Assembly: GCA_965201115.1 (NCBI GenBank)
Contig: OZ241745.1
Coordinates: 2,306,308-2,370,307 of the forward strand
Direction: 5' to 3'
Origin: Alphaproteobacteria bacterium
GTDB taxonomy: Bacteria; Pseudomonadota; Alphaproteobacteria; UBA7887
Length of the DNA stretch: 64,000 bases
The notes under the pieces were generated by a model. That model did no database searches. It had not been told where the DNA came from and worked only from the letters and a program-made list of their open reading frames with translations. Within the stretch, counting starts at the first letter, position 1, and every line of letters starts with the position of its first letter. Below are positions 28,141-46,305 of this stretch, piece after piece. The translations under genes and the position numbers were made by a program.

Positions 28141-28703
28141 TCTTTCGCGCGTTCGGCGTAGCTGCCGTCGGAGGTGTTGACCACGACGCGCGCGCCCGTC
28201 TCGATATGCGGCGGGACCATGATGCGCTCGCCGTTCTCCAGTATCGCGGGCTTGAAACTCGAAGCCGCGGTCTGCCCCTTTACCACCGGCTCGGTCTCGG
28301 CCACCGCCATCGCAACCGTATCGGCGACGCGGACGGCGATGGCCGCGTCCTCGAACGATTCGACCTCGACTTCCATGCCTTCCTGCAGGAACGCCCGCCC
28401 GGATGCGACAAGGGCCGCGTCCACATCGATCTGTTCGTAGGTCTCGCCGTCCATCAGCGTAAGCACCTCGCCGTTGGCGTAGAGATACTGGTAGCGCTTT
28501 TGCTCAAGCCACGCGCGCTCGACCGACTCGGCGGCGCGGAAGCGCTCGTTCAGCTTCGTGCCGTCGCGCAAATGCTTCAGCTCGACCTGGTTGTACGCGC
28601 CGCCCTTGCCGGGCTGCGTGGCCTGGTTGCGCACGACGCGCCACAACGCGCCCTTGTGCTCGATAACCATGCCGGGGCGGACGGCGTTGCCGTTGATCTT
28701 CAT
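28137..28703 (-). CDS. efp: Translation elongation factor P
   Basis: [24 protein letters not shown]…QPGKGGA (conserved Lys loop KGG) ; 188 aa. Confidence 0.85.
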
Positions 28704-28830
28704 GAGCGGATTCCGGGTTTGCGCCGCGCTGCGGCCTCGCAACGCGCGATTTTACCCGCGCCGCCGCCCCAACGCAATTGCCGCGCGCGCCTCCCGCAAC
28801 TCCCGCCGAAGGCGGGGCCTGGGCGCCCGA

Positions 28831-31800
28831 TCAGAAGCGGACGGTCAGGGTGGCGCTGCCGGTGAAGTCGCGGTTGCCGTGGCGGGCGGCGGCGTAGTTG
28901 GCGTTGGCGCGGAGGGCCATGCGGCCGTCGGCCCATTCGTGGGCGGCGCCGAGGCCCAAGCGGGCCCATGTCGCTTCCGCTTCGGCCTTGAAGGGCGGCC
29001 TGTCCGCCGCGGTGGTTTCCATTGCGCCGGACAGTTCGCGCTCCAGGTCCAGCGTTGCGAACATGGCGCCGGCGCCGCCGGGGAGGGCGGCGGACTCGGC
29101 GCGCACGCCGGCGCGGGCGGTAATGCGCCGGCCCGCGTCAAGCGACACGCGCTCGTTCACGGAGTCCGTGAACGACGACATCTCCACCATCGACCAATCG
29201 GCGCCCGCGCGCGGGGTCAGCGTTACGCGGCCCAGCTCGAGGCGCCGCCCGATCTCCACGCCGGCAGCGTAGCCGCGGCCCGAAAGATCGCGCGCAAGCG
29301 CGCCCTCGAGCGCCGCGTCCGAATCGAGGTCGGCCTCGTACAGCGTAGCCGCGGCCTGAGCGCTCACATAGATATTCTCGGCGGGCAGCCACGCGCCCGA
29401 TATGCGGGCGCCCGTGCCGGTTATCTCGACACGGCCGCCGCCCGCCTCGGTGTCCGCGTCCGTGTCCACATCGGCGCGGCCGCGCACATGATGGACGGAG
29501 ATCGCGAACACGCCGCGTTCGCCCGCCGCGCCCTCGATCCCGGCCTCGAACCCGAAGCGGCGGTAATCGTGATGCGCCTGGGCTGTCGAGGACGCCGGAT
29601 GGCGGTCGCCGCCGGCGGCGTCGAGGCGCGCGAACGCGCCGCGCGGCGCGCCCGCCGAAGCGAAACGGTCGCCATGGGCGGGGAGCGCGTTCAGCGCCAG
29701 CAGCACCGAAGGCAGAGCTTCGTACACGCGGTGGCGCGGCGCCGGACCGACCTCGATGCGGCCGTCGGCGGTTATCCGGGGCATCGAGTCGGCGCGGCCC
29801 TCGCGCTTGAGGACGACGGCAGCGCCGCTGCTGTCGATGCGCCCGCCGCCGACGCGTTGCGCTGCCTCCTCGTCCGATTCGCCCGCGGCGGCCGTTATCG
29901 TCACCCTCTCGGCGCGGGCGACGGGCTCCTCGATGCGCCCGTTGGCGCCCACCGTCACCGCGCCGCGGGGTACGTCGACGCTTTGCACCGCGCCGTTCAC
30001 CTCGACCGCGCTGCCGGTTCCCGCCAGCGTAACCCTGCCGTCGATTTCGCCGCCGGCGCCGACCGTCACGGTCGAAGCCGCGCCGGCGTCGCGCGCCTCC
30101 ACGGCGCCCTGCACCATGCCATCGACCGTCATGCTCAGCGCGCCGGTTTCGGCCAGGACCGCAACGCGGCGGCCCTCCGCGTTCTCCGCGCCCACAAGCG
30201 CGCCGCCCGCGGCAACCTCGACCGCGCCGCCGGCGGGAACATGCAACATGCCTTCCGCATCCCCGCCCACGGCGATGAACTCGACGCCACGGACATTCCC
30301 CCTGAACTCCGCGCCGGACGCCACCGTCAGACGGTGCATGCCCCCGCCGCCGCCGATGACGTCGCCCGTCAGCGCGTTCGCGACCGCAACCGTCAGCGCC
30401 CCGGGGCCCAGGTCCTCGATATTGCCCACGACATTGCCGTTCACCGTCACCGTCAGGTCGCCGGACGCGCTGCGCACCGCCGCCCGCCCGTCGAGGTTCG
30501 ATAGCCGCCCCCCGGCGTTTACCGCGACCGTTCCGCCGCGGTCGAACAGCACGCTCCGGGCGGAGCCATCGACCGTCACCGCGCTGGCGGCCAGATGGAT
30601 GAGACCCTCGACCGAGCCGCCGGACTTCACATGAACGTCATGCTCGCCGCCGCCGCGGCCGAATATCCCGCCCTCGACCTTGCCGCTCACATCTACTTTC
30701 AGATCGCCGTCGCCCTCGCCGCGAATGTCGCCCGTCACGGTCGCCCGCGCCGCAACGTCCACCGTCAGGTCGCCCGCCGCGCCGCGGATCGCCTCGGTCG
30801 TTCCATCGCTCTCGACGCCTGTTACCGAGCCGCCGCTGGCGACCGTTACCGAACCGCCATTGTCGTAGAGCACCCGCCCAACGCGGCCCGCAATCGTCAT
30901 CGCGCTTGCCGGAAGATGCACCGTGCCCGTCACCGCGCCGCCGGCCATCACCGCAACCGTGTGCGAACCCGCGCCCATGCCGCGAATGCCGCCGGTCACC
31001 GTGCCCGTCACCGTCGCCGTCAAATCCCCCGCGCCGCGCTCCTCGATGTCGCCCGTCACGCGGCCCGCAACCGTCGCGGTCAAGTCGCCCGCGCCGCGCT
31101 CCTCGATGTCGCCCGTCATGCGGCCCGCGACCGACGCGACCAGGTCGCCGGCATCCAGATCCACGATATCGCCCGTCACCATGCCGCCGGACGCGACCGT
31201 GACTTCGTGCTTGCCGGCGCCCTTGCCGTGGATGGCGCCCGTCACCGCGCCGCTCACATTCACGGTCATGGCCCCCGCGCCGCGCCCCTCGATGCGGCCC
31301 GTCACCATGCCGCCGGACGCAACCGTGACATCGAGAGCGCCCGCGTCGGCGCGAATCGCCTCGCCGCCGATGCCGGCGATGCGGCCCGTCGCCGCAACCA
31401 TCAGCGCGCCGCCGTTGTCGAACAGAACGCGCCCCGCAGCGCCGCGGATCGTCGTCCCGCTCTTCGGGTTATGCACCGTGCCCAACACCCGCGCCTTCTC
31501 CGCGATCTCGACGGTATGCACGCCGCCGCCGCGACCGAAGATCTCCCCGTTAATCGTTCCGGTCTCCGACACCGTAACCGTCAGGTCGCCATCGCCGCGC
31601 GCCTCGATATTGCCCGCGACCATGCCGTGAACAGTCACCGCCAAATTGCCCGCGTCGCCGCGGATCGCCTCCTTCGTTCCGTCGATATCGAGGCCCGTAA
31701 TCTCGCCGCTGGCGTTGACCGTTACCGCGCCTCCGTTGTCGTAGTGGACGCGCCCGACATCGCCCGAGACCGTCAGCGCCGCGCCCGCGGGCAGGCGGAC

Positions 31801-34800
31801 CGTTCCGGCAACGGCGCCCGAGGACGCCACCGTAACCGTGTGTTCGCCGGCGCCTTCGCCGACAACGCCGCCCGTCACCGTTCCGGCGACCGAAACCTCC
31901 AGATCGCCCGCGCCGCGCTCGGCGATGTCGCCTGTTACCGCGCCGGCGACGTCGACCTCGAGATCGCCGGCGCCGCGGCCCTCGACGAGGCCCGTGACCG
32001 CGCCATTGGCCATAACCGTGACGTCGAGATCGCCCGCGTCGGCGCGAATCGCCTCGGTCGTTCCATCGTTATCGACGCCCGTGACGGCGCCGCCGCCGGC
32101 GACCGTCACCGTTCCGCCGTCGGCGTAGAGAATGCGCCCGACGCTGCCGCCCACGGTCATCGCCGCGGGGTTGCGTATCGTGCCCGTCACCGCGCCGCCG
32201 GCCTCGACGGTCGCCATCAGCGTCCCGCCCGACTCGATGTCGCCCTCGACGCGCCCTTCGTCCCGGACCGTGACCGTCAGCGCGCCCATCGTGCTCTCGG
32301 CGGCTGTGCCTTCGACGCCGGTCAGTTTCCCGCCGCCGGCGACCGTTACCATCCCGCCCGAGGCATACAGAACGCGCCCGACGCTGCCCGAAAACGTGAA
32401 CGACGCTTGCGGGTTGTGTATCGTGCCCGTCACGACGCCGCCGGCCTCGACGGTCGCCGTCAGCGTCCCGCCCGACTCGACGTCGCCCTCGACGCGGCCT
32501 TCGTCGTTCACCGTGACGGTCAGCGCGCCGGCCGTGCTCTCGGCGGCTGTGCCTTCGACGCCGGTCAACTTCCCGCCGCCGGACACCGTCACCGTCCCGC
32601 CCGAGGCGTAGAGAACGCGCCCGATACTCGCCCCGCTCCCGACCGTGAACGACGCCTGCGGGTCCCGTATCGTCCCCGTCACGACGCCGCCGGCCTCGAC
32701 GGTCGCCGTCAGCGTCCCGCCCGATTTGACATCGCCCTCGACGCGGATCCCGTCGTTCACCGTGACCGTCAGCGCGCCGGCCGTGCTCTCGATGGCCACG
32801 CCCTCGACGCCGGTCAGCGTCCCGCTCCCGGACACCGTCACCGTCCCGCCGCTGGCGTAAAGAATGCGCCCGATGCTGCCCGCGACCGCAAGCGCGGTCT
32901 GCGGGTCGTGTATCGTGCCCGTCACAACGCCGCCGGCCATGACATTCGCCGTCAACGAGCCGCCGCCATCGACGCGGATATCGCCCGTCACTGTTCCCGA
33001 AACGGTCGCCGTCAGAGCTCCGCCGCCGTCGCCGAGGATGGCGACGCCCGACGCCGCGCCCACTTCGCCGCCCGCGCCCACGGTCACCGCGCCGCCGCCG
33101 AACAGATGCACGCCCGCGCCGGTTCCGCCCATCGCGGCGCCGTGTACCGTCACCGTCTGATTGCGCACGCCCGCCGTGACGCCCGCGCCGCGGACATAAA
33201 TGCCCTTCGCCCCGCCCGTCACACGCGCGCCCGCGGAAACCGTGACCGCGATGGCGCCGTTGCTGTCGTGCGGAACGACGTAAAGCGCCTCCACGCCGTT
33301 CCCCTCGGCGTCGATGGCGCCGCCGGTCACGTCCACATGGATGTCGCCGGCGTTGTAGGTCAGCGCGTGTTGCCGGACCGTGTTCTTCCACGCGGCGTCG
33401 TAGTCGGCGTCGGGAAGGGCGGTCAGCGCCGTCGTCAGTCCGCTGCTGTCGCCCGACAACACGGCTGTCAGCGCCGCGCGCTCCGCGGCCGAGAGAGCAT
33501 CGCCGGCGCGGACACGATCGGCGATCGCCGTGTGGGACAGCGCCATGGCGCGGACGCCGGCGCGCGACAGACCCAGTATTTCCTCCGCCGCCGCGTGCGC
33601 CAGCGGGCCGTCGCCGGTCGGCGCGGCGGTCGCCGCGGCGCGCTTGCGCCGGAGATCCTCCGCTGCCGCCTTCCACGCGGCGTCGTAGTCGTCGGCCGGA
33701 AGCGCCGCCAGCGCCGTCGTCAGCGCGGCCGAATCGTTATCCGTTATCGCCGCAAGCACAGCCTGTTCCGCCGCCGACAGCGTCTCGTCGGCGCCCGCGA
33801 TCCGGCCCCGGATGAAAGCCTCCCTCACCGGCGCGCCCACCGTGACCGTTCCGCTCGACGTAACGTGGATCATGGGCATGGTCCGCGCCGCGTCGTCCGC
33901 TGTTGTCGCGCCCACGCCCATCGTGTGGCCGCTCGACCGCCGCGCCCAGGCGACAACGCCGGCCTCCGGCGCCTCGACCGCGCCCGCATGCGTCACAAGG
34001 ATGCGCCCCGCCGCGCTGTCGTCGTTCGTAAGCCGCCCCTCCATGCCGATGGCGAACGGCGCCGCGACTTCCGCCGCCGCGCCCGTCGTCATCTCGATGG
34101 AGCCGAGGCCGTCATGGCGTACCCAGAGACCCCGCGCGTTCAGGCCTTCCGCGGAGACGGCGCCGCCCGTCATCTCGACGGAGCCCTTTCCGGGCGACCC
34201 CGACTTGTAAACATGCAGCCCGTTGGCGTTGTCGCCCGCCGTCTCGACCGAGCCCCCCGTCATGCGCGCGGAGGCGGAGCCGCTCCCCCCGCTGCGCTCG
34301 GCGTAAACCCCGTGGGAATGGATGATATTGACATAGCTCCCGCCCCGCGTGCGGATCGCGCCGCCTTCCATGACGACGGCCACGTTCGAGACGCCCGCCC
34401 CCCGATATCCGGACCAGCCCCTGAGACCTATGGCCCCCGCCCCCGTCGTCTCGATCAGGCCGTCGGTCATGGTAACCGTGACGTCGCCCTGCCCTCTCTC
34501 GGAGCCGGAGACGCCGTAGGCGCTGTGGCCCTCTGTCTTGACGACGGTGTCGCTGCCCGAGAGGGTGACGGCAACGGCGCCCGTCGAGGAGGCGTTGCTC
34601 CGCGCGCCGGCGACGCCCGCGGAGGAGGCTCCTTTCGTCGAGACGGAGCCGCTCACGCTAACGGTTACGTTGCCCGTCCCGGCGTGGGCGCCGCTGACGC
34701 CGGTGGCGCTCGCCCCCTGCGTCGCGATGGAGCCGCCGCTCATGCTGACGGTTATGTTGCCCGACGCGCCGGAGGCGATGGAAGCCGTCAAGCCGCTACC

Positions 34801-35259
34801 GTCTCCCCCCTGGCTCGAGAGGGAGCCGCCGGTCATGTAGATGCCGATGTCGCCCGCCCCGGCGAGGCGGTTGACATAAAGGAGACGGGAGCTCGGCTCC
34901 CTCGTCTCGACGGAGCCGCCGCTCATGCGGATGATCGCGCTTCCGGTCCCGCGGCGCTGGATCCGCAGGCCCTCCGCCTGGTCCCCCAAGGTTACGACCC
35001 TGCCGGCCGTCATGCGAATCTCGGCGTTGCCGGAACCGTCGTGATCGACCCTGATGCCCCGGTTGTTGGCGGTGTAACCGGTAATGTTGACGCTACCCGG
35101 GTCGACGAGGATGTCGGCCGCGCTACTGCCGCCTTCGATGCAGACGATGATCCCGCCGCCGGTGTGCGGCCCGCCGCGGCACACGTTCTGCGCCGCCGCC
35201 TCCCCGGCTCCCAGCGCGAGCGCAAGCAGCAGCCCCGCCGCAAACGCCCGCGCGCTCAC
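28831..35259 (-). CDS. Giant autotransporter (type Va secretion) with glycine-rich, internally repetitive passenger and C-terminal beta-barrel ending …LTVRF
   Basis: 2142 aa; signal peptide (MSARAFAAGLLLALALGAGEAAAQ); tandem about 65-70-aa passenger repeats (…GGTVTVSG.GKLTGVEGTAAEST.GALTVTV.DEGRVEGD.ESGGTL.ATVEAGG.VTGTI…); C-terminal autotransporter barrel with terminal Phe. Confidence 0.8.
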   Translation of the reverse strand: MSARAFAAGLLLALALGAGEAAAQNVCRGGPHTGGGIIVCIEGGSSAADILVDPGSVNITGYTANNRGIRVDHDGSGNAEIRMTAGRVVTLGDQAEGLRIQRRGTGSAIIRMSGGSVETREPSSRLLYVNRLAGAGDIGIYMTGGSLSSQGGDGSGLTASIASGASGNITVSMSGGSIATQGASATGVSGAHAGTGNVTVSVSGSVSTKGASSAGVAGARSNASSTGAVAVTLSGSDTVVKTEGHSAYGVSGSERGQGDVTVTMTDGLIETTGAGAIGLRGWSGYRGAGVSNVAVVMEGGAIRTRGGSYVNIIHSHGVYAERSGGSGSASARMTGGSVETAGDNANGLHVYKSGSPGKGSVEMTGGAVSAEGLNARGLWVRHDGLGSIEMTTGAAAEVAAPFAIGMEGRLTNDDSAAGRILVTHAGAVEAPEAGVVAWARRSSGHTMGVGATTADDAARTMPMIHVTSSGTVTVGAPVREAFIRGRIAGADETLSAAEQAVLAAITDNDSAALTTALAALPADDYDAAWKAAAEDLRRKRAAATAAPTGDGPLAHAAAEEILGLSRAGVRAMALSHTAIADRVRAGDALSAAERAALTAVLSGDSSGLTTALTALPDADYDAAWKNTVRQHALTYNAGDIHVDVTGGAIDAEGNGVEALYVVPHDSNGAIAVTVSAGARVTGGAKGIYVRGAGVTAGVRNQTVTVHGAAMGGTGAGVHLFGGGAVTVGAGGEVGAASGVAILGDGGGALTATVSGTVTGDIRVDGGGSLTANVMAGGVVTGTIHDPQTALAVAGSIGRILYASGGTVTVSGSGTLTGVEGVAIESTAGALTVTVNDGIRVEGDVKSGGTLTATVEAGGVVTGTIRDPQASFTVGSGASIGRVLYASGGTVTVSGGGKLTGVEGTAAESTAGALTVTVNDEGRVEGDVESGGTLTATVEAGGVVTGTIHNPQASFTFSGSVGRVLYASGGMVTVAGGGKLTGVEGTAAESTMGALTVTVRDEGRVEGDIESGGTLMATVEAGGAVTGTIRNPAAMTVGGSVGRILYADGGTVTVAGGGAVTGVDNDGTTEAIRADAGDLDVTVMANGAVTGLVEGRGAGDLEVDVAGAVTGDIAERGAGDLEVSVAGTVTGGVVGEGAGEHTVTVASSGAVAGTVRLPAGAALTVSGDVGRVHYDNGGAVTVNASGEITGLDIDGTKEAIRGDAGNLAVTVHGMVAGNIEARGDGDLTVTVSETGTINGEIFGRGGGVHTVEIAEKARVLGTVHNPKSGTTIRGAAGRVLFDNGGALMVAATGRIAGIGGEAIRADAGALDVTVASGGMVTGRIEGRGAGAMTVNVSGAVTGAIHGKGAGKHEVTVASGGMVTGDIVDLDAGDLVASVAGRMTGDIEERGAGDLTATVAGRVTGDIEERGAGDLTATVTGTVTGGIRGMGAGSHTVAVMAGGAVTGTVHLPASAMTIAGRVGRVLYDNGGSVTVASGGSVTGVESDGTTEAIRGAAGDLTVDVAARATVTGDIRGEGDGDLKVDVSGKVEGGIFGRGGGEHDVHVKSGGSVEGLIHLAASAVTVDGSARSVLFDRGGTVAVNAGGRLSNLDGRAAVRSASGDLTVTVNGNVVGNIEDLGPGALTVAVANALTGDVIGGGGGMHRLTVASGAEFRGNVRGVEFIAVGGDAEGMLHVPAGGAVEVAAGGALVGAENAEGRRVAVLAETGALSMTVDGMVQGAVEARDAGAASTVTVGAGGEIDGRVTLAGTGSAVEVNGAVQSVDVPRGAVTVGANGRIEEPVARAERVTITAAAGESDEEAAQRVGGGRIDSSGAAVVLKREGRADSMPRITADGRIEVGPAPRHRVYEALPSVLLALNALPAHGDRFASAGAPRGAFARLDAAGGDRHPASSTAQAHHDYRRFGFEAGIEGAAGERGVFAISVHHVRGRADVDTDADTEAGGGRVEITGTGARISGAWLPAENIYVSAQAAATLYEADLDSDAALEGALARDLSGRGYAAGVEIGRRLELGRVTLTPRAGADWSMVEMSSFTDSVNERVSLDAGRRITARAGVRAESAALPGGAGAMFATLDLERELSGAMETTAADRPPFKAEAEATWARLGLGAAHEWADGRMALRANANYAAARHGNRDFTGSATLTVRF

Positions 35260-35280
35260 GCCGCGCTCCCCGGCTGCCGC

Positions 35281-35303
35281 GGGGGGGGGGGGGGGGGGGG
35301 GGG
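35281..35303. repeat. Homopolymeric G23 tract (poly-C in sense orientation) 21 nt upstream of autotransporter-1 start codon
   Basis: 23 consecutive G between promoter-like region (TTGCCG…CAAATAAACGTA) and SD GGGGAG/GTG start of the minus-strand gene. Confidence 0.9.
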
Positions 35304-35439
35304 TACGTTTATTTGCACGGCAAGCGCGGGCGCAAACCCTCGGTACGGACGGGGCATTGTCATGACGGAGCGCTCCTCGGCGGAAATGGGTACCACGCGG
35401 ATGTCGTCAATATACCACACACGGCGCGCGGGCGCAAAC

Positions 35440-35950
35440 GCCTCGGGGCGGGGGGCGATGACCGCGACTCTCCCCGGCGGGATCGCGGCGCGCGGGAACG
35501 TGCGGGCTGGAAGCCCGCGGTCCCGGGCCCCGCCTTCGGCGGGGTTGCGCCTCCCCCGGCGGCATCGCGGCGGGCGGAAACGTGCGGGCGAGACGCCCGC
35601 GCACCCAAGAAGCTCGCGCGGGCGCCGTTGCGGGGCATTGCGGGGATCCGCGGGGCTCGGGGCTGTCGAGACGCCCGCAGTCCCGGGAAGCGCGCGCCGC
35701 CCGCAAACGCGCCGCAGGCGCTGACCGCCCGGGTGCGCGGGCGTCTCGCCCGCACGTCTCGACAGTTTCGATCGTTGGCGGGAGGGGCGTAACGACTGCG
35801 CCCTTCCCGGCAATGCCGCGGCGCGCGAGAACGTGCGGGCAGGATGCCCGCGGTCCCGGGCCCCGCCTTCGGCGGGGTTGCGCCTTCCCCGGCGGGCGCC
35901 GCGCGGGTCGCCAACGTGCGGGCGAGACGCCCGCGCACCCAGGAAGCGCG
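35440..35950. repeat. Cluster of REP-like dual-hairpin intergenic repeats
   Basis: Recurring units …GGGAACGTGCGGGCAGGATGCCCGCGGTCCCGGGCCCCGCCTTCGGCGGGG… (hairpins GCGGGCA-gga-TGCCCGC and CCCCGCC-ttc-GGCGGGG) and variant GCGGGCG-aga-CGCCCGC. Confidence 0.8.
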
Positions 35951-35953
35951 CGG

Positions 35954-37069
35954 TCAGTGGCGGCGGGCGATCTCCTCCGCGCGCGCCAGCAGCGCGTCGC
36001 CGCTCGCGCACACGATCACCGCATCGCCGACCTCCTCGAGCCGGTCCGGATCGTCCACGCCCGCTACCGCCGCCGCCAGACGCGAAGCCGCCTCCGCCCC
36101 GAACTTGCGGCCCGCCTGCCGCGCCAGAAGCGCACGCTCGCGCTCAAGGCCGCGCGCCCGTTCGCGCGATGCGCCTCGCTCAAGACCACGCGCCTCGCCA
36201 AGCTCAAGCCCACGCGCCTCGCCAAGCGCTTCGCTGCGCTCCGCGCGCTCGGCAAGCAAACTGTCGAGCCGTTCCGCAAACAACGATTCCATGGCCCCCA
36301 AATCCTCCAAATCCCCGACCCGCCTCAAACGCGCAGCCAGCGCGCCGTCCGAAGCCCCGAACCGGTTCGCCTCGAGCATGTGCCGAAGCGTCGCCCCGAA
36401 CGCGCGGCGCAAACTCGCATGCTCCGGACCCGAAAGCAACCGACGCAACGCCGCGACAACCGCCGGCACAGACTCCGGATCCCCGTGCTCAAGCGCAAAA
36501 CGCGCCGACACAACGTTGCCCGCGGGCAAATCCTCCGGACGCAGACGATGAACATCGAGCAGCAGGTAACCCTGCCGGGGCTGAAAACGCTCCAGCGCAG
36601 CCCCCGCCGGCGCTATCTCGTCGCGAACCTCCCGCGACGCAGACCAACGCGCACGCCCGTTGTAAACGACAATCGGCAAGACCGGCGGAAGCGGACCCGC
36701 GCGCCGGTTCTTCCGGTCGTCCCGGCGAAGCCGCGAATACAACTGAGCCGTGTACGCATACACGCGCACCGCCATGTCCAGGTCGACCTGCGACTGAAAC
36801 TCCAGCATGACCAGCAGATACACCCAGCCGGTCGTGCCGTCGGCGGCGCGGTAGCGCAGCCGCCACACGCGGTCGCCCCGCGTCTGCCGCAGATCCTCGT
36901 CCACGTACTCCGCCGGCGCCGGTTCGAGGCTGGCGAGGTCGAGGCGGGAGACATCGAACTCCGGGCCCAGCGCCTGCCGCATGAACCCCCCGAGCAGGTC
37001 GGCGACCGCCCGCTCATGCTCGAAAAACAGTTTAAAGCTTGCATCGTGTATCTCGCGCATGGCGGTCAT
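35954..37069 (-). CDS. Rpn/YhgA-like recombination-promoting nuclease / putative transposase (PDDEXK_7 with C-terminal DUF4351-like tail)
   Basis: 371 aa; N-terminal …DASFKLFFEHERAVADLLGGF… typical of Rpn family; D/E-rich core (…VWRLRYRAADGTTGWVYLLVMLEFQSQVD…). Confidence 0.65.
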   Translation of the reverse strand: MTAMREIHDASFKLFFEHERAVADLLGGFMRQALGPEFDVSRLDLASLEPAPAEYVDEDLRQTRGDRVWRLRYRAADGTTGWVYLLVMLEFQSQVDLDMAVRVYAYTAQLYSRLRRDDRKNRRAGPLPPVLPIVVYNGRARWSASREVRDEIAPAGAALERFQPRQGYLLLDVHRLRPEDLPAGNVVSARFALEHGDPESVPAVVAALRRLLSGPEHASLRRAFGATLRHMLEANRFGASDGALAARLRRVGDLEDLGAMESLFAERLDSLLAERAERSEALGEARGLELGEARGLERGASRERARGLERERALLARQAGRKFGAEAASRLAAAVAGVDDPDRLEEVGDAVIVCASGDALLARAEEIARRH

Positions 37070-37079
37070 TATAGCACAT

Positions 37080-37290
37080 GGCGCCGAACGAAGCGCCCCC
37101 CGAGGATCGCCGGCATCGCGCGGGGCGCCGACGTGCGGGGCATTGCGGGGCTCCGCGGGGCTCGCGCGGCTGCGGGGCTCCGCGGCTTGGCGCTCGCGCC
37201 CTCCTGCCGACGCCGCGGCGGGCGGGAACGCGCGGGCAGGATGCCCGCGGTCCCGGGCCCCGCCTTCGGCGGGGTTGCGGCTTCTTCCGC
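37080..37290. repeat. REP-like dual-hairpin repeat copy between Rpn gene and autotransporter-2
   Basis: Same GCGGGCAGGATGCCCGC / CCCCGCCTTCGGCGGGG unit as elsewhere. Confidence 0.8.
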
Positions 37291-37292
37291 GG

Positions 37293-40200
37293 TCAGAAGC
37301 GCACGGTGAGTGCGGCGCTGCCGCTGAAGTCGCGGTTGCCGTGGCGGGCGGCGGCGTAGGCGGCGTTGGCGCGGAGGGCTATGCGGCCGTCGGCCCATTC
37401 GTGGGCGGCGCCGAGGCCGAGGCGCGCCCATGTCGCTTCCGCTTCGGTCTCGAAGGGGCGGTCTGCCGCTGTTGTTTCCATCGCGCCGGACAGTTCGCGC
37501 TCCAGGTCCAGCGTTGCGAACATGGCGCCGGCGCCGCCGGGGAGGGCGTCGGACTCGGCGCGCACGCCGGCGCGGGCCGTTATGCGCCGGCCCGCGTCAA
37601 GCGATACGCGCTCGTTCACGGAGTCCGTGAACGACGACATCTCCACCATCGACCAATCGGCGCCCGCGCGCGGGGTCAGCGTCACGCGGCCCAAGTCGAG
37701 GCGCCGCCCGATCTCCACGCCGGCGGCGTAGCCGCGGCCCGAAAGATCCCGCGCAAGGGCGCCCTCGAGCGCCACGTCCGAATCGAGGTCGGTCTCGTAA
37801 AGCGTCGCCGACGCCTGACCGCTCACATAGACGTTCTCCGCCGGCAGCCACGCGCCCGACAGGCGGGCGCCCGTGCCGGTTATCTCGACACGGCCGCCGC
37901 CCGCCTCCGCATCCATCTCCGCGTCTGTCTCCACATCGGCGCGCCCGCGCACATGATGAACGGAGACCGCGAACACGCCGCGTTCGCCCGCCGCGCCCTC
38001 GAACCCCGCCTCGAACCCGAAGCGGCGGTAGTCGTGATGCGCCTGCGCGGTCGAGGAGGCCGGATGGCGGTCGCCGCCGCCAGCGTCGAGGTGCGCGAAC
38101 GCGCCGCGCGGCGCGCCCGCGGCGGCGAAGCGGTCGCCGTGGGCGGGCAGCGCGTTCAGCGCCAGCAGCACCGAAGGCAGTGCCTCGTACACGCGGTGCC
38201 GCGCCGCCGGCCCGACCTCGATACGGCCATCGGCGGTTATCCGAACCTGCGAATCGACACGGCCCTCGCGCTTGAGGGTAATCGTGGCGCCTGCGGCGTC
38301 GATGCGACCGCCGCCGACGCGCAGCGCCGCCTCCTCGTCGGTTTCGCCCGCGGCCGCACGTATCGTTACCGTCTCGGCGCCGATGACGGGGTCCTCGATG
38401 CGCCCGTTCTCGCCCACCGTCACCGCGCCGCGGGGCACATCGACGCTCTGCGCCGCGCCATCGACCGTGATCTTGCTGTCGGCGCCCGCCAGCGTGACCT
38501 TGCCGTCGATTTCGCCGCCGGCGCCGACCTTCACGGTCGAAGCCGCGCCGGCGTCGCGCGCCTCGACGGCGCCCTGCACCGCGCCATCGACTGTCATGTC
38601 CAGGGCGCCGGTTTCGGCGACGACCGCCACGCGGCGGCCTTGCGCGTCCTCCGCGCCCACGAGCATGCCGTCCGCGGGGACCGTCACCTCGTTGCCCGCG
38701 GGCACATCCAGCGTTCCCTCCGCGCGCCCGGCCACGAGTATGGACTCCACGCCCTCGACATTTCCCTTGAAGACGCCGCCGGGCTGCACCGTCAGCCGAT
38801 GCATGCCTCCGCCGCCGCCGATGACGTCGCCCGTCAGCTCGTTCGCAACCGTAACCGCGAGGTTTCCGGGGCCGGTGTCGGAGACGCTGCCCATGACGAC
38901 GCCGTTCACCGTCACCGTCAGGTCATCGGCCGCGCTGTAAACCGCGCGGCCGTCGAGGCCCGTTATCCGTCCTTCGGAACCGACCTCGACCGCGCCGCCG
39001 CGATCGAACCGGATGCTCCGTGCGGAGCCGTCGACCGTCACCGTGCTGGCGGCCAAGTGGATGAGACCCTCGACCGAGCCGCCGGATTTCACATGAACGT
39101 CGTGCTCGCCGCCGCCGAGGCCGAATATCCGGCCCTCGACCTTGCCGCTCACATCCACCTTCAAATCGCCATCGCCCGCGCCGCGAATGTCTCCCGTTAC
39201 GGTCCCCATCGCCGCCACGTCCACCGTCAGATCGCCCGCCGCGCTGCGGATCGCCTCCCGCACCCCATCGGTCTCGACGCCGGCAATGGTCCCCGACGCC
39301 GCGATGGTTACCGAACCGCCATTGTCGTACAGCACGCGCGCCGCGCGGCCCGCGACCGTCGCCGCGTGCGAACCCGCGCCGACGCCGCGGATGGCGCCCG
39401 CAACCGAACCCCCGGACGCAACCGTAACCCGGTGCATGCCCGCGCCCATGCCGCGGATATCGCCGGCAACCGAGCCCGCAACCGTTACCGTCAGGTCACC
39501 CGCGCCGCGCTCCTCGACGGCGCCCGCAACCGAACCGCCGGACGCAATCGCGACCCGATGCGCGCCGGCGCCCATGCCGCGGATATCGCCGGAAACCGCG
39601 CCCGCAACCGTTACCGTCAGGTCGCCCGCGCCGCGCTCCTCGATCGAACCCGTCACCGAACCCGCAACCGTCGCGACCAGGTCGCCCGCGTCCATATCGA
39701 CAATGTTACCCGTCACCGAGCCGCCGGAGGCGACCGTAACCTCGTGCCTGCCGGCGCCCTTGCCGAGGATGGCGCCCGTTACCTTGCCGCCCGCGTTCAC
39801 GGTCATGCCGCCCGCGCCGCGCTCCTCGATGACGCCCGCGACGGCGCCGCCGGACGCGATCGCCACCGTCAGGTCTCCCGCGTCGGAACGGATCGCTTCC
39901 CGGACGCCCTCTATCTCGAGACCGGCAATCCGGCCCCGCGCGCCGACCTTCACGGCGCCGCCACGGTCCAGCAACACGCGCCCGGCCGCGCCGTGCTCCA
40001 CATCCACCTCGCTCGCCGCCAGGCGCACCGTTCCCGTGACCATGCCGCCGCCGCGCACCGCGACCGTGTGTTCGCCGGCGCCGAGACCCAGTATGTCGCC
40101 CTCGACCGTGCCGGTTACCGTCGCCGCCAGAGCGCCGCCGCGGCTCTCCACATTTCCGGTCGCCTCGCCGGCGACCGTAACCTCCAGGTCGCCCGCGGCG

Positions 40201-42950
40201 CTGCGGATCGCCTCGCCGCCGATGCCCGAGACGCGCCCGCTCGCGGCGATGGTCAGCGCGCCGCCGTTGTCGAACAGAACGCGCCCGACGGCGCCGCTTA
40301 TGGTTGTCCCGCGCTTCGGGTTATGCACCGTGCCTGCAACCGTCGCCTTCTCCGCGATTTCGATGGTGTGCGTCCCGCCGCCGCGGCCGAATATCTCCCC
40401 CATAATCGTCCCGGTTTCCGACACCGTGACCGTCAGATCGCCGTCGCCGCGCGCTTCGATATTGCCCGTCACCTCGCCGTGAACGGTGACCGTCAAATCC
40501 CCCGCGTCGCCGCGGATCGCCTCCCGCGCGCCCTCGATTTCGACGCCCGTAATCTCGCCGTTCGCATTGACCGTGACGGCGCCGCCGTTGTCGTAATAAA
40601 TGCGTCCGACCTTGCCCGCGACGGTCATCGCGCCTGTCGGCAAACGCACCGTCCCCGTGACGGCGCCCGCGGATTCTATCGCGACCGTGTGCTCGCCGGC
40701 GTCCTCGCCGCGAATATCGCCGGCGACCGTGTTCGACACCGTGACGTCCAGGTTGCCGGCGCCGCGTTCGGCAATGTCGCCCGTTACCTCGCCGGAAACC
40801 GCGACTTTCAGATTGCCGGCGCCGCGGCCCTCGATGTTTCCCGCAACCTCGCCGTCGGCGGCCACCGTGACGGTCAAATCCCCCGCGCCGGCGCGGATCG
40901 CTTCCCGCGTTCCCTCGATTTCGACGCCCGTAATCCGGCCGCCGCCGGCGACCGTTACCGTTCCGCCGTTGTCGTAGAGTATGCGCCCGATGCGCACCTC
41001 GTCCGCAACCGCGAACGGGCTCCGGGGGTTGTGTATCGTGCCTGTAACCGCGCCGCCGGACATGATATTCGCCGTCAGCGCGCCGGCGTCGACGATGCGG
41101 ATATCGCCTTCGATCCTGCCTCCGCTCTCCACCGTGACGGCGAGATCGGTTTCCGGCGCTTCGTAGTCTTCGCCGGGTTCCGCGGGCGGCGCGTATCCGG
41201 CCTCGATCGCCAAGCCCGAGCCTGCCTTGACGACGCCCGTGCGGCCGACCGTTACGGCGCCGCCGCGCCGCATCCGGATGGCGGCGTCCCGCGCGCTCGC
41301 GCCGATCGTCTCGACGGTTCCGTTCACGATTACGCGGTCCTCCACGCCGGCGCCGGCGGGGGGCCCAGTTATCACGATGGCGTGCATTACGGGTTCGAGG
41401 AGGTTCGCGGTCGTGGTCTCGCCGTCGGCGCCGGGCCGCTCCGCCTCGACGGTCCGCCACCCATAGACATGCGTCGGGTATATGTACCGGTTTCCGTTGG
41501 CGCCGAGCTGTTCTTGCGTAATCGCGCCGTTTTCGTAGTCCTCTTCCGTCAGCGCCTGGGCGCGCACGGTTGCGCCCTCGGCCACCCGGACGGTAAACGC
41601 GGCGCCGGCGGTTCGCGGCAGGGCGTAGATGGCGGTACCGCCGCGGGTCTCCACCGATCCGCCCGTGACGTCGACGATGTGCCCTTCGATCGTGTCGGTC
41701 GTTTCGGGATCGTCGGTCAGATCGTTCGCCGCGTTGAGTACCTGCGCGTCGATGGCGAGGCCCTGCACGGTCGCTATCGTGCCCGACGACACGACGCGGA
41801 CGCGGCCCAAGCCGGAGTTCCGGGCGTTGATGCCCGAGCCCTGCCGGGTGCTCCAGGTCGGGCTGCGCCGGACCGCGGCCCGGATCGTGCCGCCGGCGTT
41901 GACGATGACGTCGCCCGACTGATAGGTGTCGCCGTCGGCGTCGGGGGCCGAGTCCCTGGCGAAATTGCTGCCGGGAAGAAGCCACGCCCAGATGGCCCTG
42001 CCGCCCTCGGCGGAGACGTCGAGCAGCGATCCCGGTCTGAGGTCGATGACGATATCGCCGTCCTCGCCATTCTGCTCGACATACATGCCGTTGCCGCCCG
42101 CCGACCCCTCGACGTTCCGGACGATGCTGTTAGCTCCCATTACGATATTGACGTCGAAATTCTTTCTTCCCTCGGAGATGGGGACGTAATCGGTCAGATG
42201 GACCCATATCGCGGAGCCGTTGCCGGCCCAATGGCCGATGCTCCCGCCGAACCGGGGGTTGAGATCGACGTTGCCGTTAAGCGTGAGCGCTATGGGCGCC
42301 CACCCGCTGCCGCTCATATGGATGCCGCTGTGGGAGTTCGTGGCCTCCCTCGCGGACGAGTAGTACAGCTCGGTACCGTCGGATGGGCGATTCGGGTCGT
42401 CCGCCGGCCAATACGACGGCGTCCGGCTGAACTCGATCGTGGCGCCCTCCTCGACGATCAAGGTCGGGCCGCCGTGCGTCTTCAACTTGAGAGCGCCGTC
42501 GACCCAGAAGCCGCGCATGTCGGCGAGGCCGGTCGCCGCGATCCTGACGCCCGTCTTGACGGTGATTTCCACATTGTTCTCACGGGTGTTTTCGCCCACT
42601 ATCTGATCGGCGGGATCCGTGTAGTAGGTTCCCCGGCGATGGTCCCAGTACCTCACGCCGTTCCGCGTGCGCCCGCCTCCGTACTGGTCCCAGTGGACGG
42701 CTCCCCAGTCGGCCTCGCCCGCCGGCTTGTTCGCCCTCGCGGCGCAGACCGCGGCGGTTGTGTACTGCTGGTTATGCGGGCTTCGCAGGCCATAGCCCGC
42801 GCGCACGTCCGGGGCTGTCATGGCGCATATTACGGGGGCCTGAAACGGCGCCAGCTGCGCCTGCGCCGGGGCGGCGAACATCGCCAGGCCGACCGCGCAG
42901 AAGACGGCGGCGGCGCGCATCGCGGTTCCGGGGAAGCTCCGTGCGATCAT
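37293..42950 (-). CDS. Second giant autotransporter paralog, with C-terminal beta-barrel about 90% identical to the first
   Basis: Start taken at ATG 42950 (MIARSFPGTAMRAAAVFCAVGLAMFAAPAQA signal peptide; SD GAGGA); alternative in-frame ATGs 42962/43049/42920; same passenger repeat family and near-identical last about 350 aa. Confidence 0.8.
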   Translation of the reverse strand: MIARSFPGTAMRAAAVFCAVGLAMFAAPAQAQLAPFQAPVICAMTAPDVRAGYGLRSPHNQQYTTAAVCAARANKPAGEADWGAVHWDQYGGGRTRNGVRYWDHRRGTYYTDPADQIVGENTRENNVEITVKTGVRIAATGLADMRGFWVDGALKLKTHGGPTLIVEEGATIEFSRTPSYWPADDPNRPSDGTELYYSSAREATNSHSGIHMSGSGWAPIALTLNGNVDLNPRFGGSIGHWAGNGSAIWVHLTDYVPISEGRKNFDVNIVMGANSIVRNVEGSAGGNGMYVEQNGEDGDIVIDLRPGSLLDVSAEGGRAIWAWLLPGSNFARDSAPDADGDTYQSGDVIVNAGGTIRAAVRRSPTWSTRQGSGINARNSGLGRVRVVSSGTIATVQGLAIDAQVLNAANDLTDDPETTDTIEGHIVDVTGGSVETRGGTAIYALPRTAGAAFTVRVAEGATVRAQALTEEDYENGAITQEQLGANGNRYIYPTHVYGWRTVEAERPGADGETTTANLLEPVMHAIVITGPPAGAGVEDRVIVNGTVETIGASARDAAIRMRRGGAVTVGRTGVVKAGSGLAIEAGYAPPAEPGEDYEAPETDLAVTVESGGRIEGDIRIVDAGALTANIMSGGAVTGTIHNPRSPFAVADEVRIGRILYDNGGTVTVAGGGRITGVEIEGTREAIRAGAGDLTVTVAADGEVAGNIEGRGAGNLKVAVSGEVTGDIAERGAGNLDVTVSNTVAGDIRGEDAGEHTVAIESAGAVTGTVRLPTGAMTVAGKVGRIYYDNGGAVTVNANGEITGVEIEGAREAIRGDAGDLTVTVHGEVTGNIEARGDGDLTVTVSETGTIMGEIFGRGGGTHTIEIAEKATVAGTVHNPKRGTTISGAVGRVLFDNGGALTIAASGRVSGIGGEAIRSAAGDLEVTVAGEATGNVESRGGALAATVTGTVEGDILGLGAGEHTVAVRGGGMVTGTVRLAASEVDVEHGAAGRVLLDRGGAVKVGARGRIAGLEIEGVREAIRSDAGDLTVAIASGGAVAGVIEERGAGGMTVNAGGKVTGAILGKGAGRHEVTVASGGSVTGNIVDMDAGDLVATVAGSVTGSIEERGAGDLTVTVAGAVSGDIRGMGAGAHRVAIASGGSVAGAVEERGAGDLTVTVAGSVAGDIRGMGAGMHRVTVASGGSVAGAIRGVGAGSHAATVAGRAARVLYDNGGSVTIAASGTIAGVETDGVREAIRSAAGDLTVDVAAMGTVTGDIRGAGDGDLKVDVSGKVEGRIFGLGGGEHDVHVKSGGSVEGLIHLAASTVTVDGSARSIRFDRGGAVEVGSEGRITGLDGRAVYSAADDLTVTVNGVVMGSVSDTGPGNLAVTVANELTGDVIGGGGGMHRLTVQPGGVFKGNVEGVESILVAGRAEGTLDVPAGNEVTVPADGMLVGAEDAQGRRVAVVAETGALDMTVDGAVQGAVEARDAGAASTVKVGAGGEIDGKVTLAGADSKITVDGAAQSVDVPRGAVTVGENGRIEDPVIGAETVTIRAAAGETDEEAALRVGGGRIDAAGATITLKREGRVDSQVRITADGRIEVGPAARHRVYEALPSVLLALNALPAHGDRFAAAGAPRGAFAHLDAGGGDRHPASSTAQAHHDYRRFGFEAGFEGAAGERGVFAVSVHHVRGRADVETDAEMDAEAGGGRVEITGTGARLSGAWLPAENVYVSGQASATLYETDLDSDVALEGALARDLSGRGYAAGVEIGRRLDLGRVTLTPRAGADWSMVEMSSFTDSVNERVSLDAGRRITARAGVRAESDALPGGAGAMFATLDLERELSGAMETTAADRPFETEAEATWARLGLGAAHEWADGRIALRANAAYAAARHGNRDFSGSAALTVRF

Positions 42951-42988
42951 GGTTGTCCTCATGGGGTCGGGGCGCGCCGGCCTGCCGC

Positions 42989-43005
42989 GGGGGGGGGGGG
43001 GGGGG
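42989..43005. repeat. Homopolymeric G17 tract (poly-C in sense) upstream of autotransporter-2, with flanks conserved relative to tract 1 (CAAAT(A/T)AACGTA-Cn-GCGGCAG)
   Basis: 17 consecutive G; flanking motif shared with 35281-35303 tract. Confidence 0.9.
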
Positions 43006-43119
43006 TACGTTAATTTGCCCGCCGCCGCCGCGGGCAGGCGCAAACCCATTGCGTGGAACGGGTATCGTCATGACGGGGCCCTCCTGGGCGGGAACGGACA
43101 ACGCGCGGATGCCGCGAGC

Positions 43120-43860
43120 GGCGGGATGGTACGCCATGCCGCGCGCGGGGGGCAACCGTTTTGTGCGGGGGGACTCGCGGCGGCTTCCTGGGCGCGCGGG
43201 CGGGGCGGCGGGGATCCGCGGGGCTCTGCGGGGCTCGCGCGGCCTGGCGCTCGCGTTTTCCTGCCGACGCCGCGGTGGGCGGGGACGTGCGGGCAGGATG
43301 CCCGCGGTCCCGGGCCCCGCCTTCGGCGGGGTTGCGCGGTGGCGGGAAACGGCGCGCCCTCCCCGCCGACGCCGCGGCGGGTGGGAACGTGCGGGCGGGG
43401 ACGCCCGCGCACCCAGGAAGTTCGCGCCTTCGGCGCGGGTGGGGCGGCGGGGATCCGCGGGGCTCTGCGGGGCTCGCGCGGTTGCGGGGCTCTGCGGCCT
43501 GGCGCTCGCGGCTTCCTGCCGACGCTGCGGTGGGCGGGAATGTGCGGGCAGGATGCCCGCGGTCCCGGGCCCCGCCTTCGGCGGGGTTGCGCGGTGGCGG
43601 GCAACGGCGCGCCCTCCCCGCCGACGCCGCGGCGGGCGGGAACGTGCGGGCGGGGACGCCCGCGCACCCAGGAAGTTCGCGCCTTCGGCGCGGGTGGGGC
43701 GGCGGGGATCCGCGGGGCTCTGCGGGGCTCGCGCGGTTGCGGAGCTCTCGGCCTGGCGCTCGCGGCTTCCTGCCGACGCTGCGGTGGGCGGGAACGTGCG
43801 GGCAGGATGCCCGCGGTCCCGGGCCCCGCCTTCGGCGGGGGTGCGAATCGGCGGGCGGTC
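43120..43860. repeat. REP-like repeat array including about 2.6 tandem copies of an about 240-bp composite unit (about 43210-43850)
   Basis: Unit GGATCCGCGGGGCTCTGCGGGGCTCGCGCGG…GTGCGGGCAGGATGCCCGCGGTCCCGGGCCCCGCCTTCGGCGGGG…GTGCGGGCGGGGACGCCCGCGCACCCAGGAAGTTCGCGCCTTCGGCGCGGG recurs with period about 240 bp. Confidence 0.8.
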
Positions 43861-45138: not shown

Positions 45139-45149
45139 GAACGCACCCC

Positions 45150-45615
45150 TCGGCCCGCCGCGCCGCGCGCGGGCAAAACCCCCACCGCCGGTCCGCCGGT
45201 CACGGGACCGAGTATATACCGGCGCGCGGGGATCCGCAACGCGCCTTCCGGGCGCGCAGGCGCGGCGCGGAAACGTGCGGGCGGGGACGGGGCGGGCGCC
45301 CAGGAAGCGCGCCGCGCACTCCCCGCAAACGCCGCGCTGCTTGCCGACGTGCGGGCAGGATGCCCGCGGTCCCGGGCCCCGCCTTCGGCGGGGCAAGCAT
45401 TTCGGTACAGACACCGAGGGCGCGCCGCCATGCGCTTCCTCGCTAACGCCGCGCCGCACGGGAACGTGCGGGCGAGACGCCCGGGCGCCCAGGAAGCGCG
45501 CCGCGCACTCCCCGCAAACGCCGCGCTGCTTGCCGACGTGCGGACAGGATGCCCGCGGTCCCGGGCCCCGCCTTCGGCGGGGCAAGCATTTCGGTACAGA
45601 CACCGAGGGCGCGGT
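45150..45615. repeat. Four tandem/nearby copies of REP-like dual-hairpin repeat (two subtypes alternating)
   Basis: …GCGGGCAGGATGCCCGCGGTCCCGGGCCCCGCCTTCGGCGGGGCAAGCATTTCGGTACAGACAC… twice, interleaved with …GTGCGGGCGGGGACGGGGCGGGCGCCCAGGAAGCGCGCCGCGCACTCCCCGCAAACGCCGCG… units. Confidence 0.8.
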
Positions 45616-46292: not shown

Positions 46293-46305
46293 GGCGCGCC
46301 GCGGC

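Follow-up and report, generated by a model that had tools for sequence, protein, structure and literature searches.

A putatively phase-variable pair of giant autotransporter genes flanking an rpn gene in a REP-rich region of an uncultured alphaproteobacterium

Genes of the locus

We analyzed a 64-kb stretch of DNA (the window; contig OZ241745.1 of assembly GCA_965201115.1, positions 2,306,308 to 2,370,307, approximately 73% G+C) from an uncultured alphaproteobacterium. At its center, two giant autotransporter genes, AT1 and AT2, enclose rpn, a gene of the Rpn nuclease family, and arrays of repetitive extragenic palindromic (REP) elements fill the spaces between them. A preliminary description of this DNA had proposed that the block is a cassette for recombination and antigenic variation, with the nuclease promoting exchange between the autotransporters. 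The three genes are the following:

28831..35259, minus strand: AT1, giant type Va autotransporter, 2142 aa from a GTG start
35954..37069, minus strand: rpn (RpnL, 371 aa), PF04754, between AT1 and AT2
37293..42950, minus strand: AT2, a second giant autotransporter of type Va (1885 aa when read from MIARSF at 42950)

The full open reading frame (ORF) of AT2 covers 37293-43049 on the minus strand. For comparison, we used metagenomic and related contigs, designated L005 to L013, of which L005 holds the orthologue of AT1.

AT1 and AT2 are paralogous type Va autotransporters

Both proteins carry the beta-domain PF03797, with an E-value of 3.9e-27 in AT2 and 9.6e-28 in AT1 when the C-terminus was scanned alone; the full-length AT1 sequence gave no PF03797 match, apparently as a result of filtering. 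An AlphaFold2 model of the C-terminal 482 aa of AT1 (predicted local distance difference test score, pLDDT, 89) contains a linker helix (181-196) and 12 long barrel strands, and the last 176 passenger residues consist entirely of short beta strands. When this model was used as a Foldseek query, EstA, the AIDA-I transport unit (template modeling score, TM, 0.80), EspP, Hbp, BrkA, and NalP were found with E-values of 1e-15 to 1e-20. Sec signal peptides were recognized by eye, with no predictor, in AT1 (..AAGLLLALALGAGEAAAQ) and AT2 (..AAAVFCAVGLAMFAAPAQAQ), and both C-termini read RF, with an aromatic last residue. AT1 and AT2 are classical type Va autotransporters and probably adhesin-like beta-helical surface proteins. 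Their passengers matched no Pfam or NCBIfam family, and the two proteins had no match in PDB sequence searches; passenger homologues showed only faint precomputed bactofilin-like matches.

AT1 begins with a hypervariable head (aa 1-365) and has three tandem modules of 81 aa (243 nt) at aa 797-1040, followed toward the C-terminus by modules of 100-185 aa, the linker helix, and the 12-strand barrel. The 100-185-aa stalk modules are shared with AT2. They open with GR(I/V)L(Y/F)DNGG, hold a variable number of 20-aa sub-repeats, and are arranged in the same order in both proteins (collinear from about aa 680 of AT2). The three 81-aa repeats are present in AT1 only, and the N-terminal parts (about 800 aa in AT1 vs about 660 aa in AT2) are unrelated. 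It had been suggested that both passengers are built from different numbers and orders of one repeat. The consensus quoted for that repeat describes the 81-aa modules of AT1 alone, and the modules that are shared have not been reordered.

The paralogy of the two giant genes, as first described, is borne out by their 3′ ends. Two 1-kb segments (28831-29900 vs 37293-38360) share 89.4% DNA identity, and the last 300 or so residues are 92-93% identical. Toward the N-terminus, identity decays to about 75% near aa 1040 of AT1 (aa 680 of AT2), beyond which the sequences are unrelated. The synonymous divergence (dS) between AT1 and AT2 is 0.52 in the upstream modules (aa 1041-1460), decreases to 0.35-0.37, and reaches 0.17-0.19 in the barrel; no exact match exceeds 77 nt, and the next longest has 66 nt. 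Because of this dS gradient and the shortness of the exact matches, we conclude that the 3′ ends have undergone some concerted evolution, none of it recent. The barrels, previously called near-identical, are thus highly similar but not freshly homogenized.

Arrays of large paralogous autotransporters are known from Chlamydia (Pmp), Rickettsia (Sca), and Helicobacter. AT1 and AT2 resemble these families in being large paralogues with conserved barrels and divergent passengers; unlike in those families, the passenger repeats have no direct Pfam family.

Poly-C tracts lie in a conserved, probably translated leader ORF

Each autotransporter gene is preceded by a long poly-C tract and, further upstream, by a Shine-Dalgarno (SD) sequence with an ATG:

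35281..35303, minus strand: AT1 poly-C tract (C23 in the sense direction, G23 on the plus strand), polyproline from the upstream ATG
35361..35378, minus strand: AT1 leader SD GAGGAG (35373-35378), 9 nt, ATG (35361-35363)
42989..43005, minus strand: AT2 poly-C tract (C17 in the sense direction, G17 on the plus strand), 5′ of AT2
43069..43085, minus strand: AT2 leader SD AGGAGG (43080-43085), 8 nt, ATG (43069-43071)

The same arrangement was found in the AT1 orthologue of L005 and in an AT1-like gene of L007, a more distant relative. The tract lengths are C23 in AT1, C17 in AT2, C17 in L005, and C12 in L007. A stretch of about 150 nt is homologous in the leaders of AT1, L005, and AT2. The leader of L007 has little other sequence similarity to these three, but the SD followed after 8-9 nt by an ATG is kept in all four genes (L005, 436-458; L007, 1943-1960). 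In each of them the leader ORF reads the tract as polyproline, with 5-8 consecutive prolines.

In L005 (C17) and L007 (C12), the leader ATG shares the reading frame of the autotransporter. Gene callers chose it as the start there, and the signal peptide is then N-terminally extended to about 55 aa. AT1 translated from its upstream ATG with a tract divisible by three would comprise about 2176 aa. At C23, the AT1 leader ORF is closed by the TGA of GTGA, a sequence whose first three letters are the GTG start. The AT2 leader at C17 runs out of frame across the start, while C16 or C19 would place it in frame. Since the normal start codon is followed by an A in four of four genes, one frame always ends in an (A/G)TGA stop-start overlap. 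Tract length modulo three could thus distinguish an in-frame long form, a leader that stops at the overlap and permits reinitiation, and out-of-frame read-through across the start, which would probably be off.

The preliminary description had regarded the runs as promoter tracts. They probably lie in a translated leader instead, and translational switching is probable because a conserved SD and ATG upstream read them as polyproline. An effect on transcription, via promoter spacing or the initially transcribed region as in the Bordetella fim promoters, would make the upstream SD and ATG fortuitous or part of a separate small leader peptide. We consider this unlikely, although several observations fit it: the sole AT-rich box (GCAAATWAACGTA) lies directly before the tract in AT1, AT2, and L005; in every gene, the tract is followed after 21-38 nt by a separate SD, a start codon, and a complete signal peptide; and in L010 a G16 tract is located 58 nt upstream of the start of the second autotransporter gene, in a different leader context. 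However, the AT-rich box codes for QINV, which is conserved and in which the ATA/ATT difference is synonymous, and no sigma-70-like promoter was detected around the tracts (a scan for sigma-70 promoters and terminators gave nothing useful around tracts or REPs). Moreover, the leader start is retained even where the rest of the leader has diverged, and it is the start used in L005 and L007.

Further G tracts occur in or before autotransporter genes of L009, L010, and L012; therefore, the association of tracts with autotransporters of this family is lineage-wide. In L010, tracts of G11-G15 lie in the middle of the first passenger, at a reading-frame break, and the L012 tract is found at 9492-9506. 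Scans of metagenomes with the leader motif and with the REP core, one each, returned no matches. The other window runs of at least 9 nt comprise four in the region of the clustered regularly interspaced short palindromic repeat (CRISPR) array (2780-6608) and one before a Sel1-repeat gene. The latter, a C22 tract at 48050-48071, lies 48 nt upstream of the gene (48120-49214), which is a candidate for another phase-variable gene and is missing from the syntenic TldD-coxB interval of L013.

Phase-variable autotransporters have been described in Bordetella pertussis (PMC1891110), Campylobacter (CapA/CapC, PMC7168839), and the Neisseria phasome (PMC5953494). AT1 and AT2 share with them the long 5′ G/C run, the type Va architecture, a tract length that differs between relatives, and the presence of several tract-bearing paralogues. 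Unlike those systems, the host is an uncultured alphaproteobacterium with 73% G+C, the tracts are very long (17-23 nt), they lie in a conserved polyproline leader ORF upstream of a second complete start, and switching is predicted from the sequence.

Alleles differ in repeat number and in the passenger head

AT1 and its orthologue in L005 share 91-94% nucleotide identity over the 2.3 kb that they have in common with AT2. One 20-aa (60-nt) repeat was gained or lost between them, so the variation in passenger repeat number expected from the preliminary description does occur. The largest difference concerns the head: the first 365 or so residues (34165-35259 vs L005 624-1750) are only 44% identical in amino acids and 60-70% in nucleotides, whereas the leader and the remaining 1,770 residues show 82-99% DNA identity. 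The head is delimited by sharp boundaries and contains a 96-nt indel relative to L005. This looks like the replacement of a domain by recombination. Neither the window head nor the L005 head has a counterpart in AT2 or in the retrieved paralogues, including P0084 and P0085, and donors within the genome were rejected for this reason. Silent or promoterless partial donor copies were also absent from the window, where tblastn with both autotransporters found only the two complete genes.

Exchange between AT1 and AT2 was examined in a three-way comparison with L005 over the shared 2.3 kb. AT1 agreed with AT2 against L005 at 54 sites, and L005 agreed with AT2 against AT1 at 53 sites, with no clustering of the discordant sites. 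Given this symmetry, there is no sign of recent strain-specific conversion between AT1 and AT2.

A similar pattern of barrel conservation was observed in L010 (7849-23162), which contains three tandem giant autotransporter genes with passengers 76-86% and barrels 91% identical. These genes are separated by a conserved, unrelated gene of 92-93 aa on the opposite strand. Thus, L010 resembles the window in its tandem autotransporters with conserved barrels, but it has no rpn.

Well-known examples of cassette antigenic variation are Neisseria pilE/pilS, with an upstream G-quadruplex (G4), Anaplasma msp2, and Borrelia vlsE. The present locus has in common with these systems variable surface genes, a nearby paralogue, and an upstream G-quadruplex motif (see below). 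Unlike them, it lacks promoterless partial donors, and AT1 and AT2 are each complete, having a leader, a signal peptide, and a barrel of their own; moreover, the variable head is not common to AT1 and AT2, and no conversion tracts were detected.

REP arrays and G-quadruplex motifs surround the genes

Three arrays of REP elements or bacterial interspersed mosaic elements (BIMEs) are present in the block:

35440..35950, plus strand: REP/BIME-like array with dual hairpins, from the AT1 5′ region to the rpn stop
37100..37290, plus strand: REP array from the rpn 5′ end to the AT2 stop, with a G-rich unit (37122-37169) and a type A element (37230-37279)
43150..43850, plus strand: REP/BIME-like array 5′ of AT2, made up of 2.4 copies of a 255-nt unit (96% identity)

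The junctions are therefore filled with REPs, as first noted, except that the one between AT1 and the neighboring gene for elongation factor P (EF-P) has only one single hairpin. Type A elements (REP-A) are dual hairpins of the form GCGGGC-loop-GCCCGC then CCCCGCC-TTCG-GGCGGGG, and type B elements (REP-B) read GTGCGGGCG-AGA-CGCCCGCAC. The first array contains type A at 35500-35549 and 35833-35882, type B at 35582-35612 and 35916-35946, an inverted type B copy at 35725-35755, and, at 35632-35662, a G-quadruplex motif. Each 255-nt unit combines a type A and a type B element with a G-quadruplex motif. Altogether, the window contains nine type A elements and six of type B, against an expectation of 0 from shuffled sequences. 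They are spread over consecutive intergenic regions from 35.4 to 48 kb. The plus strand carries every type A copy, and the copy at 47911-47961 falls inside an extended ORF call for TldD. The nine type A copies (35500-47961) present a stable C(UUCG)G tetraloop on the plus strand, antisense to every gene there. In DNA this rich in GC, the predicted hairpins reach z-scores of only -1 to -3.4.

The REP family is present in L005, L006, and L008, partially in L009, and absent from L007 and from L010 to L013. It also occurs away from rpn, namely at L008 1449-1660, at 45.3 and 47.9 kb of the window, and on both sides of the L005 autotransporter gene; REP clusters are sparse elsewhere, and REPs accompany rpn at every flank observed.

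Besides the homopolymer tracts themselves, the window has quadruplex motifs with four GGGG runs only at 35632-35662, 37122-37160, 43202-43233, 43441-43472, and 43696-43727, the second of them only when loops of up to 12 nt were allowed; the expectation is 0.1 in a first-order Markov model with loops of up to 7 nt. All of them are on the strand opposite the genes and inside the REP arrays beside the autotransporter genes or rpn. They lie 130-760 nt upstream of each autotransporter leader ATG, with one additional copy beside rpn. L005 has the same motif (139-177), 280 nt upstream of its autotransporter gene.

Enterobacterial REPs and the REPINs of Pseudomonas, with their RAYT transposases, are REP/BIME elements. 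The elements described here are likewise short, GC-rich, imperfect palindromes that are intergenic, form tandem composites, and are specific to a clade. They differ in that two hairpin types and a G-quadruplex unit are combined in a 255-nt composite, in the single orientation of type A, and in their tight link to rpn. A RAYT gene was not visible in the window.

Repeats of this kind raise the question of whether the similar 3′ ends, the tract lengths, or the REP arrays could stem from collapsed or mis-joined repeats in the assembly. The region is rich in repeats, homopolymer lengths are error-prone in long-read assemblies, and related short-read contigs end at rpn and REP sequences. Nevertheless, an artefact is extremely improbable. 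Over the 2.2 kb that they share, AT1 and AT2 are different at 8-15% of positions, their 5′ halves are unrelated, both frames are unbroken over 5.7-6.4 kb, and the independent assembly L005 reproduces AT1, its leader, and the REP flanks.

rpn resembles RpnL/RpnS toxin-antitoxin genes

The assignment of the gene between AT1 and AT2 to the Rpn family was confirmed by a match of its product to PF04754 (Transposase_31/YhgA-like; E 9.9e-24, 84.5 bits vs a cutoff of 21). The score against NCBIfam TIGR01784 was 24.8 bits, under the cutoff of 52.1. In an alignment to E. coli K-12 RpnA, with which it shares 19% identity, the residues D9, D66, E90, and Q92 of the PD-(D/E)xK nuclease core correspond to RpnA D11, D63, E82, and Q84, and an alignment with 52 homologues showed them to be invariant or nearly so. 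Mutation of D11, D63, E82, or Q84 in RpnA abolishes RpnA phenotypes (PMC5350276). Because the catalytic residues match those of RpnA, the nuclease is probably active. Neither invariant alleles nor an Rpn devoid of its catalytic D/E/K residues, which the preliminary description had named as findings that would speak against a cassette, were obtained: the alleles differ and the catalytic residues are intact. The AlphaFold2 model (pLDDT 88) has an alpha-beta-beta-beta-alpha-beta core. No significant match was found by Foldseek against the PDB, no match in a PDB sequence search, and no PADLOC model matched.

Two further features belong to the gene:

35954..36292, minus strand: putative antitoxin RpnS, from an internal ATG at 36290-36292 (Met260) with GGAGGA 10 nt upstream
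37068..37078, minus strand: extended -10-like box TGTGCTATAAT, abutting the rpn start on its 5′ side and kept in three other rpn loci

Within RpnS, a set of hypervariable 4-aa repeats (GEAR/GLER/GLEL/AERI..., about 36140-36250) starts 13-16 residues past Met260 and lies in a predicted 67-residue helix (257-323). Every full-length Rpn paralogue retrieved has its own set of 4-aa repeats at this distance from an internal Met with an SD. An internal start, 4-aa repeats 8-20 residues after the Met, and a long helix characterize the intragenic RpnL/RpnS toxin-antitoxin systems (PMC10400941), and the published role of Rpn is that of a toxin-antitoxin and antiphage system (PMC10400941). We infer that rpn is a gene of this type, with a predicted toxin-antitoxin/antiphage function. 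PF04754, the D/D/E/Q residues, the internal Met with an SD, and the 4-aa repeats in a long helix are shared with E. coli RpnA-E and RpnL-RpnS (PMC5350276, PMC10400941), and the latter also resemble the present family in having many copies per genome at scattered positions (PMC10400941). Differences from E. coli RpnA-E are the low identity and the TIGR01784 score below the cutoff.

The true start of Rpn is probably M4 (ATG at 37058-37060). The annotated first ATG overlaps a perfect TATAAT, the fourth-codon ATG lies 7 nt past the box, and several Rpn homologues start at the position of this Met. Since the box abuts the start and several homologues start at the fourth codon, a leaderless rpn transcript is suggested. 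An operon of rpn and AT1 was rejected, as the two genes are 695 nt of REP array apart and a promoter box of its own precedes rpn.

rpn is one of many REP-bracketed copies

The same 3,674,140-bp genome encodes 28 distinct Rpn sequences with 78-92% identity to the window copy, which is identical to the database entry P0081. A comparable number, 26 copies, has been reported in one Bacillus thuringiensis genome (PMC10400941). The Rpn homologues returned by a scan of genome contigs were all distant (35-38% identity) and came from metagenome-assembled genomes. In relatives, close copies adjoin rho (L006) and lpdA (L008). The G+C content at third codon positions (GC3) of rpn is 0.79 vs 0.86-0.93 in the neighboring genes.

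The rpn units of the window, L006, and L008 have a REP-B-like unit approximately 100 nt upstream, which is degenerate in the window copy, and a REP-B directly after the stop. A REP-A comes next in the window and L006, and the L008 contig ends inside a REP-A. The unit is about 1.4 kb long, in the order REP-B-like, about 75 nt, TGTGCTATAAT, rpn, REP-B (window 35954-37300, L006 9930-11240, L008 9820-11175). We propose that rpn may spread by recombination between REP arrays. In a published survey, Rpn genes showed neither defined ends nor terminal repeats nor target duplications, and nothing pointed to autonomous transposition (PMC10400941). The present family differs from that survey in having 28 paralogues in 3.67 Mb and in that each copy examined is bracketed by REPs.

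A stronger form of this idea is that rpn and its REP flanks constitute a duplicative or mobile, REP-bounded module (REPtron-like) that was inserted between existing autotransporter genes. The REP arrays would then be its target or vehicle, and the autotransporters mere bystanders. The common unit structure, the presence of REPs at all rpn flanks in a setting where REP clusters are otherwise sparse, the number and similarity of the copies, and the atypical GC3 would agree with this. We nevertheless find it rather improbable: the published survey argues against transposition, the same REP family occurs away from rpn, the same picture would be expected from ectopic recombination among dispersed REP arrays, with no activity encoded by the element, and the examined flanked copies number three.

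Is rpn coupled to the autotransporters?

In the cassette model that follows from the preliminary description, Rpn would cut at or near the REP arrays and thereby promote gene conversion, chimeras, and changes in repeat number between AT1 and AT2. RpnA indeed raises RecA-independent recombination when overexpressed (PMC5350276), and it has been speculated that RpnL may drive its own repeat expansion and rpn duplications (PMC10400941). Together with the intact catalytic residues, the recurrence of rpn beside an AT1-like gene in L007, the reduced dS at the barrel ends, and the 60-nt indel and replaced head that separate the orthologues, these reports speak for such a role. We judge it quite improbable all the same. 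There are 28 rpn paralogues, and those seen in relatives sit beside housekeeping genes; tandem autotransporters with the same barrel pattern exist without rpn in L010; no recent exchange between AT1 and AT2 is visible; the truly variable heads are not common to AT1, AT2, or the other paralogues retrieved; and current evidence assigns Rpn a role in toxin-antitoxin function and phage defense (PMC10400941). What stands of the proposed cassette is the variation in tract length, repeat number, and head. A cassette driven by rpn has no positive support beyond the recurring adjacency.

In a related scenario, breaks at the G-quadruplex motifs and REPs, together with Rpn, would drive both the replacement of heads, in orthologues that otherwise share 91-93% identity, and the spread of rpn. 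If true, this would be antigenic variation of the pilE-G4 type with a PD-(D/E)xK nuclease, but we hold it to be very improbable.

A probable contingency locus in a flexible region

Taken together, the locus is best described as a tandem pair of phase-variable giant autotransporter genes in a REP-rich, flexible region, with an independent rpn; we give this reading a probability of roughly 0.68. In this view, an uncultured alphaproteobacterium would have a contingency locus in the flexible part of its genome. A tandem duplication would have produced two autotransporters with a common leader, a collinear stalk, and a common barrel, whose heads are now unrelated. Slipped-strand mispairing in the poly-C tract would switch each gene among the three states set out above. 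rpn would be an independent RpnL/RpnS unit, one of 28 paralogues spread in REP arrays, and its position would reflect residence in a rearrangement-prone intergenic region without a dedicated diversifying role. Rpn is judged not to be specific to a cassette because of its 28 paralogues and the REP-bracketed copies next to rho and lpdA. The region is regarded as flexible because L013 keeps TldD-cox without the whole autotransporter/rpn block and because the AT1 orthologue in L005 has PepF, not EF-P, as its downstream neighbor.

Several observations weigh against this account. The complete second start behind each tract might make expression independent of the tract, or the tract may act on transcription. 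Homopolymer lengths may be wrong in assemblies, especially in the L005 contig (2.4x coverage). Regarding conversion, the last 500 nt of the barrel are star-like in the three-way comparison (17/14/13), and the dS of the barrel end is about one third of that of the upstream modules and about half of that of the adjacent passenger and linker; therefore, some concerted evolution has taken place. As for rpn, its context in its own genome was read for one of the 28 copies, the one in the 64-kb window. In L007, rpn is divergent from and 160 bp upstream of an AT1-like gene with 46% amino acid identity, and the genes beyond rpn are unrelated to those of the window. In L005, the upstream REP runs to the point where rpn would begin, and there the contig ends. 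The adjacency of rpn and AT1 may hence be conserved rather than accidental; we treat it as inherited or as shared residence in a plastic region.

Under the reading of a phase-variable pair with an independent rpn, an uncultured alphaproteobacterium would use a contingency-locus strategy known from mucosal pathogens. The organism is probably host-associated; ankyrin and Sel1 genes are located nearby, and the distant Rpn homologues come from metagenome-assembled genomes. The polyproline-coding tract would act as a three-state translational switch. The 28 Rpn paralogues, with their distinct repeat sets and REP brackets, offer a natural case for studying how rpn copies multiply and stay orthogonal, both of which have been left open by published work on Rpn. 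Every component is of a known kind; the combination, the polyproline leader with its stop-start overlap, the REP-bracketed 28-copy Rpn family, and the G-quadruplex motifs are modest leads. We found no evidence for a new recombination machine.

Neighboring genes and other features of the window

Downstream, the block is followed by the genes for EF-P and a SuhB-like protein. On the upstream side, genes for an unknown lipoprotein-like protein, an S24 peptidase/repressor-like protein, TldD, and the Sel1-repeat protein precede the cox cluster. By its CoxA, the organism belongs among uncultured Alphaproteobacteria; the closest named matches of CoxA (77-79% identity) come from metagenome-assembled Alphaproteobacteria and Rhodospirillaceae.

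EF-P rescues ribosomes stalled on polyproline. The EF-P gene (28137-28742) is located 89 nt downstream of AT1, and the AT1 leader encodes up to eight prolines in a row. As the orthologue in L005 has PepF in that place, the adjacency of EF-P and AT1 is probably a coincidence.

The lipoprotein-like ORF (43861-45141; MTKVLRRAALGLAAGILGAC…) encodes a proline/alanine-rich protein of 426 aa and has REP arrays on both sides; no Pfam, NCBIfam, PADLOC, or PHROG match was found for it. An Rfam scan of the whole window detected no known RNA family.

The CRISPR array (2780-6608) consists of approximately 54 repeats (…GCCGCCCCCCCGCGCGGGGGGCGCGGATTGAAAC), and no cas genes were found downstream of it within the window. 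The interpretation of the region as a defense island was rejected, as the neighbors, except for this array at a distance of 22 kb, are housekeeping genes. One CRISPR spacer is duplicated (6181-6215 and 6250-6284), and the C7 run of the repeat has grown to 9, 12, 14, and 17 in the last few repeats.

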